NCBI GenBank assembly: GCA_946408345.1 | Contig: CAMJRR010000012.1 | Coordinates: forward strand, 1,993 to 65,992 | Source of the DNA: an uncultured Bacteroidales bacterium | GTDB lineage: Bacteria > Bacteroidota > Bacteroidia > Bacteroidales > F082 | Length of the DNA stretch: 64,000 bases | Reading direction: 5' to 3' | Part shown: positions 23,164-34,401 of the stretch, one piece after another | How the letters are laid out: every line of letters begins with the position of its first letter | Position numbering within the stretch: position 1 is the stretch's first letter | Position numbers and translations under genes: made by a program | The notes under the pieces: generated by a model | The model's database searches: none | Seen by the model: the letters and a program-made list of their open reading frames with translations, nothing else | Told to the model about the DNA's origin: nothing

Positions 23164-23728
23164 TGAAAATCTACAACTCATCGAGAACAATATGTTCCTC
23201 CCTGAAGAGAGTCGCAAACCTTTAACAGAAAGCCAATGCAAATTGCTTGAAGAGGTGACGGATTGCTACCACGTACAACTCCAAAAACCAATGATCAGCC
23301 GCGCGTCTCTACGTGATTATCTCATTAATAAGTACAAGCTGACTAAGACTCAGGCATACCGCGTCATCCAGTATGCTGCAGTCATCCTTGGCAACGTGCA
23401 ACCAACGCACAAAAACTTCATACGACAACGAGTTGAGTTCCTATCTGAGAAAGCCTACGAAGCCATCGAGGCTACAGATTACCGGCGTGCTGATGCTCTG
23501 ACAAAGTTGGCCAAGGTGCTCTCCAAAGCCTTTGCCACCAATATTGATGAAGGTGAGCTCATCAATGCGCAGAAGTATCTCGAAATCGATGTGGTGAACA
23601 TCACCATCGACCCCACAGCACTCGGCATCAAGACCAGCGAAGCAAAGCAAAGGGAAATCAATAAGATGCTCCGCAAATACGAGATTGAAGACGCTGAAAT
23701 CATTCCACCAGAGGAGGATAAGGAATGA
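23156..23728 (+). CDS. hypothetical protein (packaging module)
   Basis: 190-aa ORF overlapping both neighbours. Confidence 0.6.
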   Translation: MRDENLQLIENNMFLPEESRKPLTESQCKLLEEVTDCYHVQLQKPMISRASLRDYLINKYKLTKTQAYRVIQYAAVILGNVQPTHKNFIRQRVEFLSEKAYEAIEATDYRRADALTKLAKVLSKAFATNIDEGELINAQKYLEIDVVNITIDPTALGIKTSEAKQREINKMLRKYEIEDAEIIPPEEDKE

Positions 23729-25311
23729 ATAACCTCTATCTCCATCCTGGCCAACTCCGCTACAAACTGGTTGATCCACGCGATTCGGTCAACATCTGCA
23801 GCCGTCGATGGGGCAAATCCTTCATCATTGCCATGCGTATCATGGGCAACGTGCTGGAGATGCCTGGCAGCCTCGGTGTGTTCGTGGCCAGCAGTTTCCG
23901 TCAAGCCCATGCCCGCACCCTGCCTTCGGCTCTCATGGCCATGGATGCCTTCGGATGGAAGCGCGATATCCATTATGTGATTGGCCATCGACCCGACCCG
24001 CGTTTAGGCTTCAAGGAACCCATCTTCTGCCCAAGCGACCTGAAAGATGTGATATGGTTTGCCAACGGCACGATTATGATGATCGTGAGCCAGGAGGTAG
24101 TGCTGTCGGCCAACTCCCTTACCATCCACTGGCTCGTCGCCGATGAAGCCAAGGGCCTCGACTACGACAAACTTTCCAACGAGATACTCCCCGCCATCGG
24201 TGGTAGCTCCATCTACTTCAACGACCCAGCAAAATATCCTCACCTCTGGGGCACAACCTACACGACCGATATGCCGTGCAGCAAGGAAGGTTTGTGGCTT
24301 ATCAACAAGTTCGAAAACGAATGTGACCCTGAACTGTATGAAACCATCATCGGCATGGAACTCCAAAAACGCCGACTGATGACGGAGCCTCAGAACACCT
24401 ACACCAGGCAACGCATAGCCTACCTGACACGTGCCGCAAACCTCTTGCGGTCAAAGACACTCTATTACCAGGAGCGTTCCATTTTCGACAATATCGCCGT
24501 GGTTGGCCCTGACTATGTGAAACGCTGTGAACGAAGTATGCCTGCCCTTGCCTTCAGAACATCCATCCTTTGCAAACGTATCGACAAAGTGGAAGGTATG
24601 TTCTATGAGAGCTTCGAAAAGAAAGTGCACATCTACCATGCAACGGATAACAGCCGGTTGAATGATTATAAGGAACAAAAATATGACTGTCTCCTCGACA
24701 CCGACATCGTGAGAACCAAGCCAATCGCCATCAGCTTCGACTATGGCGCACTCATCAACTGGCTTGTGGCCGCCCAGGTGCAAGGCGGCACTCACAAGAC
24801 CTTGAAGAGTTTCTACACGAAACACAAGCAACGCCTTCGCGAAGTGATTCAACTCTTCTGCGAGTATTACGAAGCCCATCCCTGCAAAACGGTGTTCTAT
24901 TACTTCGACTCCACAGCCTTGGCCACCGGCTATGTCGAAGTCGGCCACGCTGCCTACGACATTGTCCACGATGAATTGCAGAAGCACTGTTGGTACGTCA
25001 AGGATAAGCCCCTCGGAAACCCGATGGAACACGACAAGAAACACAAGATCATCAACGATGCCTTCGAAGGACGAAAGAAGCTGATGCCCATGTTCAACGC
25101 CGACAACAACGAGGAACTGATCCAGGCAATGATGTTGGCTGAAGTGGTGATAGGTTCCAAAGGGGTACGCAAGGACAAATCCGGTGAAAAGACCATCGAG
25201 AGCGACACCAACCTGCCCTTGGAACTCCGCACCGATGGCACCGACGCATGGGACACCAACTTCCTCGGCTGCCTTACCCATCCTTACGATGACGATTTCA
25301 TCTATGGGTAG
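23725..25311 (+). CDS. terL: terminase large subunit
   Basis: 528 aa. Walker A-like SRRWGKS and Walker B-like HWLVADEA. Size and position are typical. Confidence 0.8.
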   Translation: MNNLYLHPGQLRYKLVDPRDSVNICSRRWGKSFIIAMRIMGNVLEMPGSLGVFVASSFRQAHARTLPSALMAMDAFGWKRDIHYVIGHRPDPRLGFKEPIFCPSDLKDVIWFANGTIMMIVSQEVVLSANSLTIHWLVADEAKGLDYDKLSNEILPAIGGSSIYFNDPAKYPHLWGTTYTTDMPCSKEGLWLINKFENECDPELYETIIGMELQKRRLMTEPQNTYTRQRIAYLTRAANLLRSKTLYYQERSIFDNIAVVGPDYVKRCERSMPALAFRTSILCKRIDKVEGMFYESFEKKVHIYHATDNSRLNDYKEQKYDCLLDTDIVRTKPIAISFDYGALINWLVAAQVQGGTHKTLKSFYTKHKQRLREVIQLFCEYYEAHPCKTVFYYFDSTALATGYVEVGHAAYDIVHDELQKHCWYVKDKPLGNPMEHDKKHKIINDAFEGRKKLMPMFNADNNEELIQAMMLAEVVIGSKGVRKDKSGEKTIESDTNLPLELRTDGTDAWDTNFLGCLTHPYDDDFIYG

Positions 25312-25952: not shown

Positions 25953-26137
25953 GTTCAAACTATTCGCGGCGTAAGATGACAGCCGCACCAACAGCGGCAT
26001 TTTTTATGCCTATACATATCGATGATTAACAGAGCCAACGGCTCCGAGGGACGCGGTAGCAGTAATGCCCGTAAGGTTTGCGAATAGACCTGAACACCCC
26101 TATCGGAGCCTATTTTGTTCAATGTTCAAACTATTCG
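25953..26137 (+). promoter_or_regulatory. structured 5' leader (box / anti-box / box) of ORF 26115-26546
   Basis: The 14-mer GTTCAAACTATTCG occurs at 25953-25966 and 26124-26137. An imperfect complement lies at 26081-26095. A helix pairs 26040-26050 with 26097-26110. A terminator-like hairpin plus T-run lies at 25982-26005. Confidence 0.55.
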
Positions 26138-26546
26138 TATTATGTTCTATCCAACATCGAAGCGTTCCCAGCGTTGGGACGCCATCCAAGAGACCATCGG
26201 CGCGTGGGTCGAAAGCCGCCCCGAGCCTAAAGTGTGGAACAACAGCCTCCGCAGCCACATCTATGTAAGTTCGAAGACCCGTCGCGAGTTGCCCTACTGG
26301 GGCAGCAAGAACCCCCAAAGCACCGAGGCCATCTGCAAGCACTTCAATGAGATCATGCGCTTCGCCGTCAAGAAGGAAGAGGTGCAGCCGCATTCAGGCG
26401 CCGGCAAGCACTTCACCAAACTCATCATCCTTGAGCGCAAGATTGAGGGTTTCGGCACGGCCAAACTCACCGTGGGAGTCAACCAGGAAGGCCGCCTGAT
26501 GAATTATTGCATCACCGTGCCGCCTGCGGAGATGGCGATGGCTTGA
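26115..26546 (+). CDS. hypothetical protein (start 26115 or 26142)
   Basis: 143-aa ORF followed by a terminator. I could not defend any motif. Confidence 0.6.
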   Translation: MFNVQTIRIMFYPTSKRSQRWDAIQETIGAWVESRPEPKVWNNSLRSHIYVSSKTRRELPYWGSKNPQSTEAICKHFNEIMRFAVKKEEVQPHSGAGKHFTKLIILERKIEGFGTAKLTVGVNQEGRLMNYCITVPPAEMAMA

Positions 26547-26570
26547 GGCCGTCCCTCCTTCATCCATCCG

Positions 26571-26603
26571 AGGCGCGAGGCAATTGCCCCGCGCCTTCTT
26601 TTT
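26571..26603 (+). terminator. rho-independent terminator
   Basis: AGGCGCGAGG-caattg-CCCCGCGCCT followed by TCTTTTT. Confidence 0.7.
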
Positions 26604-26707
26604 GCCCGCGCCCCGCCGTTCCCCCGCCACCGCCGCCGCATATTTCGCAAAAAAGAGGGCTTGATTTCTAAAAAACCAAGAGGGCGGCGCGGGGTCTGAC
26701 GACGCAA

Positions 26708-26738
26708 AACGCGCCGATTTTTGCAAAATCGGCGCGTT
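26708..26738. repeat. perfect 14-bp inverted repeat carrying the GCGCCGATTTT motif
   Basis: AACGCGCCGATTTT-tgc-AAAATCGGCGCGTT. Each half-site shares 11 nt with the prophage-arm motifs. Confidence 0.8.
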
Positions 26739-26798
26739 AGGTGGTTGATGGATAGAGATTTGACTACTTTCAATTGTGAACTCTGATAATATAAAAAA

Positions 26799-26847
26799 AA
26801 TTCGCCGCCTGCGGCGTCCGGCTGGACTGGCAGGCGGCGAATTTTTG
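26799..26847. terminator. strong bidirectional terminator-type hairpin
   Basis: AATTCGCCGCCTGC (26799-26812) pairs with GCAGGCGGCGAATT (26830-26843). An A-run lies upstream and a T-run downstream. Confidence 0.75.
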
Positions 26848-26965
26848 ATGAAAAGTGGAAAATTTTCTATTTTGTAAGTGTACAAATATCAATGATTTAC
26901 AAAGATAATGAAAAATAATTGAAAAAATCTCATTTTTTTTTACTTGCTATGTTGTCAAATATGAC

Positions 26966-26973
26966 TATATTTG
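26966..26973 (+). promoter_or_regulatory. -7 promoter box (TATATTTGCAGCG) for the acidic-protein gene
   Basis: TATATTTG, 58 nt upstream of ATG 27031. Confidence 0.55.
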
Positions 26974-27030
26974 CAGCGTATTTCAATTCAAACAACAAAT
27001 AATTCGATTAAACAAAGAAAGGGTAAAAAA

Positions 27031-28164
27031 ATGAAAAACGACATCATCACCGAGAACATCAACGGACTGCAATTCAACGAACTGGTAGTAACAATGCAGA
27101 CAATGATTGAAGAATCAATCGCTTGTTTGTGGTACAATGACAAGAAAGATTATCTTTCGCAACTTGCTTGGTATAAGGATTGCAAGATGGAAGATTATTT
27201 TAATGTATGGACAGAAATTTGGGACGACGAAGATGGCAAGATAGGCGAAGGCCTTGACACTATCGCCCACAAGTTCGTCCTCAACGACGATACGAGAGAC
27301 GACTTTGAGTCCGCTTTTGAACAAGCCCGCGACGAGGCTTTCGAGGCGAGACTGAAAGAGATTGCTGAAGAAATCGAAGAAATCGACGATGACGACATCA
27401 AAGACATCGAAATAGACAATGATGGGAGTGAAGAAGAAATCGGAAGCCGTATTTCGGAAGCAAGTGACGCTATCAAAAAGCAAGGTGGAATAAGTGTCGC
27501 TTATGACAGTGACAATTGCTTGGATTTCCGCTTCGACCTTCTTCAGGAAATTTATGAAGCTGGCAATAATCTGTCATGCAGACAGATTGCGGCCTGGGCT
27601 GGAGCTAATGTTTGCATCCGTTATCAAGGCAATAATCCTTTTGATTACGTCTACGATTTTTATAGGGTTGATAAGAAAATCGAAACAGACTTGGATAATA
27701 TGACGGTTCACGCATACGGATATGATGAAAACGACAACGCCGAGGTCGAAGTCAATATGCAGAATAAAGTCGACAAGGACACTGAAAATGATGATTGCGC
27801 ATACGAAGTGATGGGTGCAGACTATGAGGAGGGAGTTTGGTATGCGAAACTCGTTGAACACTCCAAGTGCGACGAAACATTGTTTCAGATTGTGTTGGGA
27901 ATGAATAAGGAAGATTACAAGAAACAAGAGGAATTGCACGACTTTGAGGTTGAGGAAGCCTTCAATGAAGCAGAACGCAACTTCAATACGCGTGAATTTA
28001 GGGATGTGTCTGATTGCATTGCTGGCATTGAAGACTTTCAAGAGAACGCGGAGTTCGGTCAAAAGGCTTACATTGACGGCGTTACTTACTACAAAGTGCG
28101 TAATAGCGTGGATGAAGAGCCTTATACAATCTATTTTGAAGATGAACATTTGGAGATTTTGTAA
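27031..28164 (+). CDS. highly acidic protein (candidate DNA mimic / anti-restriction; function unknown)
   Basis: 377 aa from ATG 27031. Long D/E runs such as EIAEEIEEIDDDDIKDIEIDNDGSEEE. It has its own promoter and looks AT-rich. Confidence 0.65.
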   Translation: MKNDIITENINGLQFNELVVTMQTMIEESIACLWYNDKKDYLSQLAWYKDCKMEDYFNVWTEIWDDEDGKIGEGLDTIAHKFVLNDDTRDDFESAFEQARDEAFEARLKEIAEEIEEIDDDDIKDIEIDNDGSEEEIGSRISEASDAIKKQGGISVAYDSDNCLDFRFDLLQEIYEAGNNLSCRQIAAWAGANVCIRYQGNNPFDYVYDFYRVDKKIETDLDNMTVHAYGYDENDNAEVEVNMQNKVDKDTENDDCAYEVMGADYEEGVWYAKLVEHSKCDETLFQIVLGMNKEDYKKQEELHDFEVEEAFNEAERNFNTREFRDVSDCIAGIEDFQENAEFGQKAYIDGVTYYKVRNSVDEEPYTIYFEDEHLEIL

Positions 28165-28212
28165 ATAAAATCAAGTAATAGTTGCGCACGACACGTATCA
28201 GTGCATTTTTAA

Positions 28213-28578
28213 ATGATCGTAAGATCCGAATCAGGGGAAACCATCGTCGAGCGGCATCATTTCGAAGGGAAGAACATCGCGTTCTTGAATGAACACGCGA
28301 CATTCGACGGCAGTTGTTATCTGCTTTCTGACGAAGACGCAAAAACCTTCAAGATGATGAACACGAAGCACATAATATTGTGCAACAGCCTCTTTCTGCC
28401 TCGCTTTGCGAAGTTGGCAAACTGGGAGGTAGACTACGAAACAGGAAGGGTGAAAGGTGAGTATTACGACGAGAAAGAGAACGTGCATTACAGGACAAAA
28501 TGGTTCTCTTACAAGTGCCTTGAAGGATTTTTCGATGTCCTTTACACTATATGTAAATGTAAATTCGCTAAACGATAA
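28213..28578 (+). CDS. hypothetical protein
   Basis: 121-aa ORF. Confidence 0.55.
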   Translation: MIVRSESGETIVERHHFEGKNIAFLNEHATFDGSCYLLSDEDAKTFKMMNTKHIILCNSLFLPRFAKLANWEVDYETGRVKGEYYDEKENVHYRTKWFSYKCLEGFFDVLYTICKCKFAKR

Positions 28579-28582
28579 TGCT

Positions 28583-28903
28583 ATGCAAGAGATTACCGTA
28601 AAAGAGAAGATAAGAATGATTATCGAAATCAACGAGGCCGAAAACCCGGGCGAGAAGCTGGTTTCGGCAGGAACAGCCCTTGGTGGCGGAATCGGCTACA
28701 ATTTCGTTGAGAACCGCGCCTTCGTGCGTACCGACCTGCGAAAGAAGGTGATGGATAGGATAGCGGAGGAACACCTGAACAGGCGCGAGGTGGCGAGGGC
28801 AATAGGCTTCGACTACCAGAATTTTTACAACTTCCTGCAAGGCAAACGCGGCCTGCCTTACGAGAAGGTGGAGGAATTGCTTGCCCTCTTGGGCATAGCG
28901 TAA
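28583..28903 (+). CDS. XRE-like HTH protein
   Basis: 106 aa from ATG 28583. C-terminal LNRREVARAIGFDYQNFYNFLQGKRGLPYEKVEELL. Confidence 0.6.
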   Translation: MQEITVKEKIRMIIEINEAENPGEKLVSAGTALGGGIGYNFVENRAFVRTDLRKKVMDRIAEEHLNRREVARAIGFDYQNFYNFLQGKRGLPYEKVEELLALLGIA

Positions 28904-28936
28904 CGAAAAATTTGTTGCGCATTCGGAAATAATGCG

Positions 28937-28944
28937 TACCTTTG
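28937..28944 (+). promoter_or_regulatory. -7 promoter box (TACCTTTGCAGCG)
   Basis: TACCTTTG, 34 nt after the HTH gene stop. Confidence 0.5.
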
Positions 28945-28949
28945 CAGCG

Positions 28950-29093
28950 CAATTGTCGACGGGGGCAACCCCTGTTTAATCGAACCATATGGAATTGAAA
29001 TACCATTTCTGACAGTTGCAGGTGGGCAATTTCTACTATCGTAGATACAAACTTCACCAAAATGAGCGAGGCTTCGGCTTCGCTCTTTTTTTT
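28950..29093 (+). ncRNA. candidate stand-alone small RNA (~140 nt), promoter to terminator, no ORF
   Basis: Bounded by the -7 box at 28937-28944 and the terminator GAGCGAGGC-ttcg-GCTTCGCTC plus T8 (29064-29093). The 5' GCAATTGTC is complementary to GACAGTTGC about 60 nt downstream. Confidence 0.5.
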
Positions 29094-29119
29094 GTCACTT
29101 GCATTGCTTTCGTGGTGGA

Positions 29120-29127
29120 TATTTTTG
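29120..29127 (+). promoter_or_regulatory. -7 promoter box (TATTTTTG) for the portal operon
   Basis: 23 nt upstream of ATG 29150. Confidence 0.5.
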
Positions 29128-29149
29128 CTCGTAACCAAAAACCATATCA

Positions 29150-29374
29150 ATGATTCACGAAAGCAAATTGTTTGAATTGGTTCAAACGCATCCTTCGTTT
29201 TCGCTGACTTATGTGTCGAAGAGCGGGGAGCTGATTGCAGTGGACGAATGCCGCTGCACCTCGTTCCACAGCTCAGGCAAAACGATGAACATATTGATTG
29301 CCGCCTCAGGGCTGGTGCGTAAGGTGAACCGTAAGACCGTCACGGCCTTCAACGGAAAGGAGGTATTCCTATGA
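29150..29374 (+). CDS. hypothetical small protein
   Basis: 74-aa ORF whose stop overlaps the portal start. Confidence 0.55.
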   Translation: MIHESKLFELVQTHPSFSLTYVSKSGELIAVDECRCTSFHSSGKTMNILIAASGLVRKVNRKTVTAFNGKEVFL

Positions 29375-30750
29375 ATATTCCCGAAGAAGAGATGGTCTCC
29401 TGGGTGGGTGACAAGATTGCACTCTATAAGACAGCTTGCGTCGTTCTTGGCAACGATACGCTGACCCTTTTCGATGAAAAAGACCTGCAACCTGTCAGTG
29501 TGCATGGGTATCGCGTCGCGCCGTGGGGCGTGAATAACGACCTGCCACAACAGGTGATGGCCAAGATTGACGCGGCTGAAATCGTTGGCACCAACGCCAA
29601 CTTCAACTGGAAGGTGGCCTACGGATTAGGCCCGAAGCTCGTGGAGGTCATCCGCGACCCCGAAACCAACCGCGTGAAGGACTTCAAGGAAGTGATTGAA
29701 GGCGAGGCCTACGATTGGTATATGCGTAACAACGTGCCGCTGCTGTTGCAGGAAATCATGACCGACCTTTCCTATTTCGGCAACGCTTTCCCGCTCCTGA
29801 TTGCAGGCCCGAAGGATAAAGACGGGAAAAAGCGTGTCGGCATTCGCGGCATCGTGCACCGCGAAGCGATGTTCAGCCGTTGGGGCCTCACGAAAAAGGA
29901 TTTGATCAGCCGGCACCTGTATTGCGCCAAGTGGGACGACAGCCCGACGAAGGAGGAAATCCAGGATTCCTACGTGATTGACGAATACAACGCCGTTGAC
30001 GACATCAACAACAGGCTGCTGCTGGGCAAAGACACAAGGATGTGCTTCCCCATCTACATCACTTCGCCCGGGCGACCCTACTACAGCTATCCCAACTGGT
30101 GGAGCATCTTCCGCTCGGGATGGTACGACCAACTGACCAGCATCCCCGCACTGAAAAAGGCCATCCTGAAGCACAACCTCGGCGTTCGCCATATCATCTA
30201 CATTGCTGATGAGTATTTCGCGGAAAAAGAGGAGCTGCTGAAGATTAACAAGGATGACAAGAAGAGCCGCAAGGAGCTTTACGATGAGGTGGTGAAGCAA
30301 CTGTGCGAACAGGTGACAGGGGAGGAGAATGCCGGAAAGGCCGTTGTGTCGAAGATGAAGTTCATGCCCAACGGCAACAGTGCATCGTTCGAGAAGATGA
30401 TGAGTGTTGATACCATTAAAAATGATATCAGCGGTGGCGAATACTTGACCGACTACGAGACGGGAGCCAACATCATCAGCTACGCCATGGATGTCCACCC
30501 CTCGTTAATCGGTGCCACACCTGGCAAGAACTCCAACAGCCTTTCGGGCAGCAACATCCGAGAGATCTTCATCATGAAGCAGAGCCTCAGCAAGCCGATG
30601 GCGTACCTGGCCCTGCAATGGTGGCCGGTGGTGAGGAAGATTAACGGCTGGAACAATAACCTCGAAATCATGATCCAAGACAGCCTGTTCACGACCCTCG
30701 ACCAGTCGAAATCAGGCGAAGTGAAAACCGCAAACAATCCTACGCAATGA
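29371..30750 (+). CDS. portal protein (call by size and position)
   Basis: 459-aa ORF, the largest head-module protein apart from the terminase, protease and capsid genes. Confidence 0.55.
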   Translation: MNIPEEEMVSWVGDKIALYKTACVVLGNDTLTLFDEKDLQPVSVHGYRVAPWGVNNDLPQQVMAKIDAAEIVGTNANFNWKVAYGLGPKLVEVIRDPETNRVKDFKEVIEGEAYDWYMRNNVPLLLQEIMTDLSYFGNAFPLLIAGPKDKDGKKRVGIRGIVHREAMFSRWGLTKKDLISRHLYCAKWDDSPTKEEIQDSYVIDEYNAVDDINNRLLLGKDTRMCFPIYITSPGRPYYSYPNWWSIFRSGWYDQLTSIPALKKAILKHNLGVRHIIYIADEYFAEKEELLKINKDDKKSRKELYDEVVKQLCEQVTGEENAGKAVVSKMKFMPNGNSASFEKMMSVDTIKNDISGGEYLTDYETGANIISYAMDVHPSLIGATPGKNSNSLSGSNIREIFIMKQSLSKPMAYLALQWWPVVRKINGWNNNLEIMIQDSLFTTLDQSKSGEVKTANNPTQ

Positions 30751-31616
30751 TTCTCAAAAACATAACCCAAGCACAGAAGTTTCTGCCGTCGCTGAACCTG
30801 ACGCTGGAAAACAGCCGCTTCGACGACTTCTTCATCCGCGCCCAAGAATGGCTGGTGAGCCACATCGTGGGCAGCGACATCGAGGGCGTTTTGGAGGTTG
30901 ACGTCAGTATCGCGAATGTTGACCTACACAAGGAACTGCGCACTTTGTGCCAGCGCGTCATTGCCGAGAAAGCCATGCTCGATGCCATCCCGGAGATGGA
31001 CATGCAGCTGACCGAGGCGGGCTTTGCCGTGCAGAACAACCACGATTTCAGCCCTGCATCGGCCCAGCGAGTTGACCGCCTGTTGGCCAAGATGCCGGAG
31101 CGGATCGCCCAAGACATTGATGCTCTTGTTCGCTTCCTGATGAAAACCAGCACAGGAAATGGCGCATACGGCTATTGGCGAAGCTCCGACCAGTTCAACT
31201 ACCTGACAGCGGCATTCATGCCCTTGTGCGAGGAATACACGGCCTTTTGCAACGGGCTTCAGCTCGACAAAAAGCCATCGATGAACTACGATGACTACTA
31301 CGCCGCCATCCCGATGATGGGCAGGGAGCTCAGGAGCGTGGCCGACTACTACGTGAGCCGTGCCGAGATTGACCGCCTCGTTGAGCTGTATCGCGACAAC
31401 GACCTTTTGGAAATCCACCGCAAGGCCATCGTGAGCCTGAAGGATTGCGCCGTGGCCGCGTTGCGCTACGACATAAACCGTGCCCGCAACGCCGCCGTGC
31501 AAGCCCGCGAGGTGATGCTTTCGGACCCCGACAGCTTCACCGCCTTCAAGGCTTCGAGTGCCTACAACACGCCGACCGTCAACCTTGACGGCGGCAAAAT
31601 GGTGAACCTTTTATAA
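30747..31616 (+). CDS. hypothetical head-module protein
   Basis: 289-aa ORF, ATGA-overlapped with the portal gene. Confidence 0.65.
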   Translation: MILKNITQAQKFLPSLNLTLENSRFDDFFIRAQEWLVSHIVGSDIEGVLEVDVSIANVDLHKELRTLCQRVIAEKAMLDAIPEMDMQLTEAGFAVQNNHDFSPASAQRVDRLLAKMPERIAQDIDALVRFLMKTSTGNGAYGYWRSSDQFNYLTAAFMPLCEEYTAFCNGLQLDKKPSMNYDDYYAAIPMMGRELRSVADYYVSRAEIDRLVELYRDNDLLEIHRKAIVSLKDCAVAALRYDINRARNAAVQAREVMLSDPDSFTAFKASSAYNTPTVNLDGGKMVNLL

Positions 31617-31677
31617 TATTGAACTGTTGAAGTTCGACAACAACAATTAAACGATTAAACAACCAACAATCAACAAA

Positions 31678-32403
31678 ATGAGAATCGACCTGAAGACACC
31701 CACCTGCTGGAAAGAACTGACCACGGAGCAACTTCGCGAGGTGGTGGAACTGGCTTTGATGGGCTTGGACCGCGAGGAGTACCTGCTGGTGCTGTTTTGC
31801 AAGTTCGCCAATGTTGTGATGCTGGTTGCCTCTTCGACTGACCCAGAGGCCGTGAAGAACCGCTTCAGGGATAGCGAAGGCCAGGAGTTTGAACTTGAAG
31901 ACTGGCAGGTGGCCGAATTTTGCGGACGGTTGTCGTTTGTTCTCGACGAACAAATGCCCATGGAAGTGGCGTGGCCGTGGAAATGGGACCTCCATCTGCT
32001 GGACACCAGCTTCGGCGACTGGTTCCATGCCGACGCGCAAATGCTTGGCTTTGCCTTGGACGGCAACCCCGAGCGGCTGAAGGGTGCGATGAAAGACCTT
32101 GGCGACCCGCCCGAAACGCTGGAGCCGAGCGACATCACGCTCTTGCTGCGATGGTACGAGTGCTTCAAGGACTATCTGCAACAGACCTATCCGCTCGTTT
32201 TCCAGAAAGCGGAACCAGGCGCGAATAGCCCGACCTCTCCCATTGAGGCCCGCCAGAACATTATGCTGATGCTCAATGAAGGGCATCCACAAGACAACGA
32301 GGCTATCGAGAAAACCAACGTGCATGACGTGTTGGCTGCATTGCAGCACAAGATTGAGTATGACAAACAGATTGAACAACAAATGAGCAAATACAAACAC
32401 TAA
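31678..32403 (+). CDS. hypothetical protein
   Basis: 241-aa ORF. The antisense 273-aa ORF was rejected. Confidence 0.6.
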   Translation: MRIDLKTPTCWKELTTEQLREVVELALMGLDREEYLLVLFCKFANVVMLVASSTDPEAVKNRFRDSEGQEFELEDWQVAEFCGRLSFVLDEQMPMEVAWPWKWDLHLLDTSFGDWFHADAQMLGFALDGNPERLKGAMKDLGDPPETLEPSDITLLLRWYECFKDYLQQTYPLVFQKAEPGANSPTSPIEARQNIMLMLNEGHPQDNEAIEKTNVHDVLAALQHKIEYDKQIEQQMSKYKH

Positions 32404-34148: not shown

Positions 34149-34221
34149 TGCGGGGTAGAGCAGCGGCCAGCTCACTGGGCTCATATCCCAGAGGTCGGCG
34201 GTTCGAATCCGTCCCCCGCTA
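34149..34221 (+). tRNA. tRNA-Met(CAT), initiator type
   Basis: The cloverleaf fits standard numbering. T1:T72 is mismatched, A11:T24 pairs, and three G:C pairs (29-31/39-41) close the anticodon stem. The loop is CTCATAT and the T loop TTCGAAT. No CCA is encoded. Confidence 0.85.
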
Positions 34222-34296
34222 CAAGGAGAGCGTTTAGATGTCCCGGCAAACTCCTAACCAAACAGGCAACATCAAGTGAGTGAGAATCTCACAAAC

Positions 34297-34401
34297 GGGG
34301 ATGTCGCCCAGAGGCAGGGCATTCCGTGTAAAGGGTAGCAGAACAGAAGCACGGAGTAATAGTTCGCTTGAGAGACGCGGGTTCGAATCCCGCTTTCCCC
34401 A
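34297..34401 (+). ncRNA. aberrant 105-nt tRNA-like element
   Basis: Good D arm (GCCC-AGAGGCA-GGGC) and T arm (GCGGG-TTCGAAT-CCCGC). The acceptor GGGGATG/TTTCCCC is imperfect. The anticodon position holds an 8-bp stem with a 21-nt loop, followed by a 20-nt linker. Confidence 0.45.

Follow-up and report, generated by a model that had tools for sequence, protein, structure and literature searches.

RNA anti-CRISPRs (Racrs), which were first described in 2023 and have so far been described as mimics of a single repeat type only, have been shown to work against type I-C, I-E, I-F and V-A CRISPR-Cas systems (RacrIF1, RacrIC1, RacrIE1-2 and RacrVA1-3; Camara-Wilpert et al. 2023, PMC10651486), and a high dose matters for the action of RacrIF1 (PMC10651486). 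Cracrs have been reported from Pseudomonadota, Bacillota and Actinomycetota, not from Bacteroidota, and the RNAs within any one Cracr array are stated to be directed without exception at variants of a single type or subtype (bioRxiv 10.1101/2024.10.29.618823). Here we analyse a prophage-bearing stretch of 64,000 nucleotides from an uncultured Bacteroidales bacterium (GCA_946408345.1, contig CAMJRR010000012.1, positions 1,993 to 65,992 of the forward strand; hereafter the window) and within it a unit at 28937-29093, which a first-pass annotation of the sequence had proposed to be a phage small-RNA gene. Our results suggest that this unit is probably a prophage gene for a non-coding composite RNA anti-CRISPR of about 145 nt, a Racr-like decoy which combines a mimic of a type I-B CRISPR repeat with a mimic of a type V-A repeat. 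Racrs and Cracrs are the closest known kinds of element, and in the literature searched we found no paper that describes a cross-class composite mimic.

Results

The unit matches a type I-B repeat and a Cas12a-family handle

A search of the lysogen's own genome with positions 28930-29100 returned a motif of about 30 nt, matching at 85-97% and recurring about every 65 bp (G000:C25:22958-23571). The motif belongs to a host CRISPR array (G000:C25:22959-23643; L026:10960-11644) in which 11 repeats recur at a period of about 65 bp and are separated by spacers of 35-38 nt. This array begins 7 nt past the stop codon of cas7b, with no leader, beside a cas6b-cas5b-cas3b-cas8b-cas7b operon which makes up a complete type I-B effector set and whose PADLOC matches are full-length, with E values from 1e-90 to 0. 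The corresponding element of the window lies at 28974-29001 (+ strand; GTTTAATCGAACCATATGGAATTGAAAT, with the 8-nt tag ATTGAAAT as its 3' end) and is 91-97% identical to the repeats of the host array; it has the same base as the array consensus at 26 of 27 positions, the single mismatch falling in the hairpin loop. It is the sole match in the window at three or fewer mismatches, none of 100 shuffled sequences gave any, and it shares its orientation with the unit's promoter and terminator. Within the set of genomes searched, the repeat forms arrays in the lysogen's own genome, in one other genome of the same genus (G035), where it occurs 87 times, and in a genome from another family of the order (G060). 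By these matches, the first element corresponds to a type I-B CRISPR repeat.

Starting 26 nt past the I-B mimic, positions 29028-29046 (+ strand; AATTTCTAC-TATC-GTAGAT) form a second element with a stem that pairs 29032-29036 with 29041-29045. This motif occurs once in the 3.07-Mb assembly and agrees with the V-A handle of the genus (AATTTCTACTATTGTAGAT) at 18 of 19 positions; again the single mismatch is in the loop, and 0 of 100 shuffled sequences matched. Eleven of 150 same-genus genomes have arrays, with a period of about 64 bp, whose repeats end in AATTTCTAC(TATT/TATTT/TCAT)GTAGAT; the arrays in loci L046-L053 are of this kind. What the phage carries is the 19-nt 3' part of this 36-nt repeat, the 5' half being absent, and that 3' part is the portion kept in mature CRISPR RNAs (crRNAs). 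Two of the genus arrays (L049 and L053) adjoin proteins that match the Cas12a structures LbCas12a and FnCas12a (E about 1e-277), two others (L046 and L048) adjoin proteins that match Cas12a3 (PDB 21we and 9hlx; E = 0), and a fifth (L047) adjoins an open reading frame (ORF) equal in length to those of Cas12a3. Type V Cas4 and Cas1 are present in L046. By its agreement with these repeats, the second element corresponds to a Cas12a-family crRNA handle. No searched genome had both I-B and V-A arrays, for which reason the possession of both heads would be of benefit to a phage.

Cas12a3 is a type V effector that cleaves the tails of transfer RNAs (tRNAs) (PMC12851939). The copy in genome G018 (L046:3998-9533, G018:C80) is nearly identical to PDB 21we and is followed by a 668-aa protein with weak tetratricopeptide-repeat matches, the pair sitting between two arrays.

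Both mimics lie in a promoter-to-terminator unit with a stable predicted fold

All elements listed in the first-pass annotation are present, with coordinates that agree to within one base. The promoter that it had placed behind a helix-turn-helix (HTH) gene is a Bacteroidetes-type box of the TAnnTTTG kind, TAccTTTG at 28937-28944 (+ strand), recognised in the sequence and in the family alignment described below, 33 nt past the TAA stop codon at 28901-28903; from this box, transcription is predicted to start at about 28948-28951. Further upstream, a TTTG at 28911-28914 (+ strand), which we take to be the -33 element after the Bacteroides promoter consensus, lies inside a stretch (28905-28954, TTTGTTGCGCA ... 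GTACCTTTGCAGCG) that matches sites in six other genomes of the genus at 80-93%. Three of these sites sit 10-15 nt 5' of tRNA-Ser, tRNA-Arg and tRNA-Phe genes, and the same box with its flanks precedes tRNA genes in three loci of relatives (L014, L016 and L020). Judged by these matches, the promoter of the RNA gene resembles tRNA-gene promoters of the genus, which would suit a decoy with a dose-dependent effect, as for RacrIF1 (PMC10651486). In other genomes of the genus, sequence 5' of a greA-like leader is similar to this stretch as well.

The long-range stem noted at first pass pairs as proposed, with its 3' arm one base further upstream than the 29012-29020 given there: the 5' arm GCAATTGTC at 28949-28957 pairs with GACAGTTGC at 29011-29019 (+ strand), and the minimum-energy fold joins 28950-28957 with 29011-29018. 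This closing stem encloses the predicted hairpin CGGGGG-caa-CCCCTG, found at 28960-28974 (+ strand), and the I-B mimic. The linker between the two mimics, or pseudo-spacer 1 (29002-29027, + strand), holds the 3' arm of the closing stem and, at 29021-29026, the 5' side of a stem around the V-A unit; its partner in the fold, 29053-29058, lies in pseudo-spacer 2 (29047-29063, + strand), which is followed directly by the terminator. In the predicted fold both mimic tails are base-paired, and the helices around each mimic also bury the spacer-like stretch behind it. The intrinsic terminator, GAGCGAGGC-ttcg-GCTTCGCTC plus T8 at 29064-29093 (+ strand), has a 9-bp stem with 6 G-C pairs and a TTCG loop, and it is the best terminator-like site within 26000-32000. 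On the + strand the unit folds at -48.6 kcal/mol (z = -4.67), and none of 200 shuffled sequences folded as well; the - strand gave z = -1.97.

The view that no ORF of meaningful length fits the unit holds as well. Only two ORFs lie on the + strand inside it, one of 45 aa (TTG start) and one of 37 aa (ATG start), both of which read across the terminator, and their starts are not conserved in the related prophage of genome G022, where homology begins only at 29087; we therefore rejected a small protein as the product. A tRNA or transfer-messenger RNA was likewise rejected, since ARAGORN made no call at the unit. The suggested Rfam search returned no family at gathering score and so did not point to a known RNA family; its permissive matches were terminator look-alikes and a weak minus-strand CRISPR-DR2 (E = 0.53). 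No similar record was found among the GenBank phages searched.

The design recurs in phage contigs and its scaffold helices covary

At least 27 distinct sequences elsewhere, from viral and other metagenome contigs and one contig of a binned genome, share the design of promoter, closing stem, I-B unit, V-A unit, hairpin and terminator, many of them with a third unit. A scan of IMG/VR for both motifs 15-45 nt apart found four viral contigs with identical part order, and 59 loci were returned when just the I-B unit was sought. Of these loci, about 25 are viral contigs in which a solitary I-B unit is followed 61-71 nt on by a V-A unit, with a third unit of hairpin plus tag between them, and others have a single I-B unit within a closing stem. 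Further variants came from metagenome contigs and one 2-kb binned-genome contig. Where solitary I-B units with promoters stand in unrelated contigs, their closing stems differ widely (for example CGGGAGG/CCTCCCG, GACGTCC/GGACGTC and CCGTTGAG/CTCAACGG), and chance I-B-like matches in coding regions show no closing-stem pairing. In several family members the gene runs antisense to the ORFs on either side, an arrangement that speaks for its being a transcription unit in its own right.

We aligned 16 unique full-length sequences, including that of the window (alignment A1). All 16 have a TAnnTTT(G/A) box 4-6 nt before the 5' arm of the RNA. The window version combines the outer closing stem with the local hairpin at 28960-28974, which is specific to its lineage, appears as an insertion in the alignment and is missing from the other 15 members. 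When a profile was built from the 15 members other than the window, the window locus ranked first in the 3.07-Mb genome (E = 1.9e-7), followed by the host I-B repeats. A weak profile match elsewhere in the genome (G000:C8:69714) was rejected on inspection, as it is not a repeat unit.

RNAalifold placed five helices on the alignment, namely the I-B closing stem, the I-B hairpin, the V-A hairpin, a hairpin behind the V-A handle and the terminator. Pairing was kept in 94.5% of cells, compared with 30-48% when the partners were slid by 1-3 columns, and 11 pairs were changed on both sides, a number that none of 500 shuffles reached. The two repeat hairpins are essentially invariant (10 of 11 pairs), and all compensatory changes fall in the three scaffolding helices: the closing stem (helix 1), the hairpin after the V-A unit (helix 4) and the terminator (helix 5). 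Since the compensatory changes are confined to the scaffold, the 'spacer' positions would appear to be selected for pairing and not for sequence. Invariant hairpins within a covarying frame fit protein-binding sites presented on a structural scaffold.

The proposal of a stand-alone, non-coding phage small-RNA gene is supported by the promoter's likeness to tRNA-gene promoters, the strong terminator, a design kept in many phage contigs and the compensatory changes in its stems. As to its function, a unit that is built around two CRISPR-repeat mimics points to a candidate protein-sequestering decoy and not to a base-pairing regulator of mRNAs.

Several relatives depart from the plan of the window RNA. 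The third unit of the longer members, seen for example at L056:9365-9552 (- strand) and in about 20 similar IMG/VR loci, consists of a hairpin plus GTGGATTTAAAC or CGGATTGAAAC; it stands between the I-B mimic and the V-A mimic, and the window is without it. We presume it to resemble the 3' end of a type I-C repeat, which the array scan did not confirm: a scan of 61 genomes of the genus for arrays matching it, at 3 mismatches, gave noise equal to the control. The 2-kb contig L054:1-2028 (CASEMN010000030.1), binned as Oscillospiraceae and bearing Bacteroidetes-type promoters, holds two genes, one for a composite I-B and V-A RNA with the closing stem CCGTTGAG/CTCAACGG and one for a solitary V-A unit with its own promoter. 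At L057:3348-3550 two I-B-like units stand in tandem ahead of the rest, and in L128 and L122 several bare ATTGAAA-type tags are strung before the V-A handle.

The RNA gene sits in an accessory island of the prophage

A variable accessory island, which has the unit at its end, lies between the large terminase gene (23725-25311, PHROG 2) on one side and an ORF of 459 aa at 29371 on the other, which the first-pass annotation had labelled as the portal gene and which has no family match. Each mimic occurs once in the 64-kb window and in the whole prophage contig, and the neighbouring repeat is in each case of the other type. The window yielded no additional repeat of the I-B or V-A kind; cas genes were not given a dedicated scan there. 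The promoter expected at 29120 for the genes that follow is present (TATTTTTG at 29120-29127) and is kept in G022, whose related prophage (L010:1380-1510, G022:C2) shares the region from the T-run of the terminator (29087) onwards, at 82% identity and without the cassette. The shared region includes the TATTTTTG promoter and a 74-aa ORF; upstream of it, the G022 prophage lacks a repeat-mimic RNA, and its terminator is another one. A second occurrence of the promoter segment 29087-29141 lies 10 kb away in the G022 phage.

Directly 5' of the RNA gene lie a 121-aa ORF (28213-28578) and, 4 nt on, the likely true start (ATG at 28583) of the 106-aa HTH protein, in the gene order of an acr-aca operon. 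Neither protein gave an informative match in Pfam, PHROG or PDB that would mark it as acr or aca, and no relatives were found in IMG/VR. The neighbours of the other family members have no known function. The same accessory island contains a c4-2 antisense RNA at 26040-26112 (Rfam, 46.1 bits, above gathering score). Elsewhere in the prophage, the interval 34149-34401 holds a tRNA-Met gene and, 75 nt on, a 105-nt tRNA-like RNA (Rfam tRNA, 40.3 bits; no call by ARAGORN), which, together with the tRNA-tail-cleaving Cas12a3 of the genus, may have a tie to tRNA-directed defence.

Discussion

How a composite decoy might act

Based on the known biochemistry of the enzymes and on the Racr precedent, we propose that the steps of binding, cleavage and sequestration could run as follows. 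The RNA would be made in large amounts. Cas6b would bind the I-B mimic and cut it 8 nt from its 3' end, at a predicted position of 28993/28994, and Cas5b and Cas7b would then load on the tag, while Cas12a, or Cas12a3 in other strains of the genus, would bind at the second mimic and trim the RNA at the handle, with the cut predicted just before 29028. Because the sequences after both handles are short, self-paired and targetless, the resulting complexes would be dead ends which vie with genuine crRNAs for the Cas proteins. In hosts with either system, interference against the phage would accordingly fall, which would widen its usable host range and protect the prophage.

A bolder proposal, to which we would give slightly less than an even chance, is that the RNA is a cross-class, two-headed anti-CRISPR. 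Here, head 1 would disable the assembly of the I-B Cascade, head 2 would occupy Cas12a-family proteins including the abortive-infection nuclease Cas12a3, and the helices that make each 'locked pseudo-guide' would be the design rule of a large, undescribed family of two- and three-head decoys in Bacteroidales phages.

Several observations weigh against a composite decoy. The repeats of the host I-B array are degenerate, with differences in the loop and over their first 3-4 nt, and cas1, cas2 and cas4 are missing from the vicinity of that array; moreover, tblastn with type V Cas1 found no cas1 in the host assembly, and the host I-B system may be non-adapting or decaying. The contig that carries the prophage (C12) is tied to the contig with the I-B locus (C25) by metagenomic binning only, in an assembly with 6.9% contamination. 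Searches with TIGR04330 and tblastn found no Cas12a, Cas12a3 or type V Cas1 or Cas4 in the 86%-complete lysogen assembly, which leaves the V-A unit without a visible partner in the lysogen genome. None of 201 spacers from the host's own I-B array, from G035 and from eight V-A loci matches the prophage beyond 15-17 nt. As for the covariation, its structure was derived from the same alignment on which the changes were counted, and many members are close relatives. Finally, no I-B Racr is among those tested in PMC10651486.

Alternative explanations

The V-A half of the unit, with its handle at 29028-29046, tail at 29047-29063 and terminator at 29064-29093, has exactly the published layout of CracrVA1 (bioRxiv 10.1101/2024.10.29.618823), and pseudo-spacer 1, at 26 nt compared with 35-38 nt for the host spacers, has the shortness typical of crRNA-like RNAs. 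Both features would suit a regulatory guide of the Cracr type, in which one or both pseudo-spacers direct Cascade or Cas12a to the promoter of a cas gene or of a CRISPR-guarded toxin and repress it by partial complementarity. We nevertheless consider such a guide unlikely, as the target searches, which covered eight V-A loci of the genus and one I-B locus, gave no PAM-proximal match (PAM, protospacer adjacent motif) of at least 9-10 nt to a cas or creT promoter in the loci sampled. Specifically, pseudo-spacer 1 has no seed match above chance in the lysogen's own genome or its I-B locus, where no PAM-proximal match reaches 9 nt. Pseudo-spacer 2 has no seed match with a TTTV PAM in the eight V-A loci or the own genome; the best matches in those loci are of 9 nt, lack a TTTV PAM and come at about the estimated chance number, and genome-wide seed matches of 10-11 nt are also near the estimated chance level. 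In addition, the region past the V-A handle is kept across the family as a covarying hairpin and not as a sequence. The transcript could also serve as a hijacking mini-crRNA gene, which lends a guide to host Cas proteins against competing phages or plasmids and so excludes superinfection. Viral mini-arrays of such a kind are known (reviewed in PMC11656645), and handle plus tail might, in theory, yield a Cas12a crRNA in which about 17 nt are free ahead of the terminator. However, there is one repeat per type and hence no repeat-spacer-repeat unit, both tails are base-paired in the predicted fold, and when IMG/VR was scanned for sequences identical to the first 18 nt of each pseudo-spacer, none came up for pseudo-spacer 2 and two for pseudo-spacer 1, which lie in coding regions, do not extend further and are about the estimated chance number; we thus give this explanation the least credence of all.

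Only a little more credible, and still highly improbable in our view, is that the unit is a decaying relic of host CRISPR fragments, or an ordinary phage small RNA or 3' untranslated region of the HTH operon whose likeness to repeats has no function. It is true that the HTH gene and the unit have no terminator between them, which means that co-transcription could occur and read-through could add to the transcripts from the unit's own promoter, and that the lysogen assembly is without a Cas12a-family gene. Against this, two different mimics lie 26 nt apart, each present once in 64 kb and neither matched in 100 shuffles, their protein-contact stems are all intact with the mismatches confined to loops, promoter and terminator are kept in many independent contigs, and the cores of the repeats are invariant while the scaffold around them covaries.

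Significance

If the unit does encode a decoy with two repeat mimics, counter-defence against multiple systems can be packed into one very small phage gene. This would help to account for the movement of temperate phages between Bacteroidales strains of gut and rumen that differ in their CRISPR content, and it would offer a compact natural scaffold for switching off Cas12a-family enzymes, possibly including Cas12a3. The combination of invariant protein-binding hairpins, a covarying scaffold, a promoter like those of tRNA genes and a terminator provides a search signature for more such genes.

Comparison with known systems

In a viral mini-CRISPR array (reviewed in PMC11656645), a minimum of two repeats of one kind enclose a spacer with a match in a competing element, whereas the unit of the window contains a single repeat of either type and no detected target. 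What the two share is that repeats are carried by a virus without cas genes. The likeness to Cracrs goes further and includes the order of pseudo-repeat, short pseudo-spacer and terminator, the joining of several units into a single transcriptional unit and, as proposed for the window RNA, rivalry with crRNAs over Cas12a or Cascade. However, the pseudo-spacer of a Cracr matches a cas or creT promoter, for which we found no counterpart in the own I-B locus and the eight V-A loci, and the window RNA joins a I-B with a V-A unit, unlike Cracr arrays, which are reported to stay within one subtype. Compared with the crRNA handle of the Cas12a family, the phage copy keeps the 19-nt handle with its 5-bp stem, bar one loop base, and the same handle serves arrays of the genus beside Cas12a (L049 and L053) and beside Cas12a3 (L046-L048, with L047 assigned by ORF length); where an array would go on with a spacer and another repeat, the phage copy leads into a paired tail and a terminator.

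Like Racrs, the unit is encoded by a phage or prophage outside a CRISPR-cas locus, directly after a promoter, and appears as a small non-coding copy of a host repeat. The proposed mode of action is likewise that of Racrs, namely competition for Cas proteins and the formation of non-functional complexes, and a V-A class of Racrs has been demonstrated by experiment (PMC10651486). What sets the RNA described here apart from Racrs is that it brings together a class 1 (I-B) and a class 2 (V-A) mimic on one transcript and frames each of them with covarying helices.

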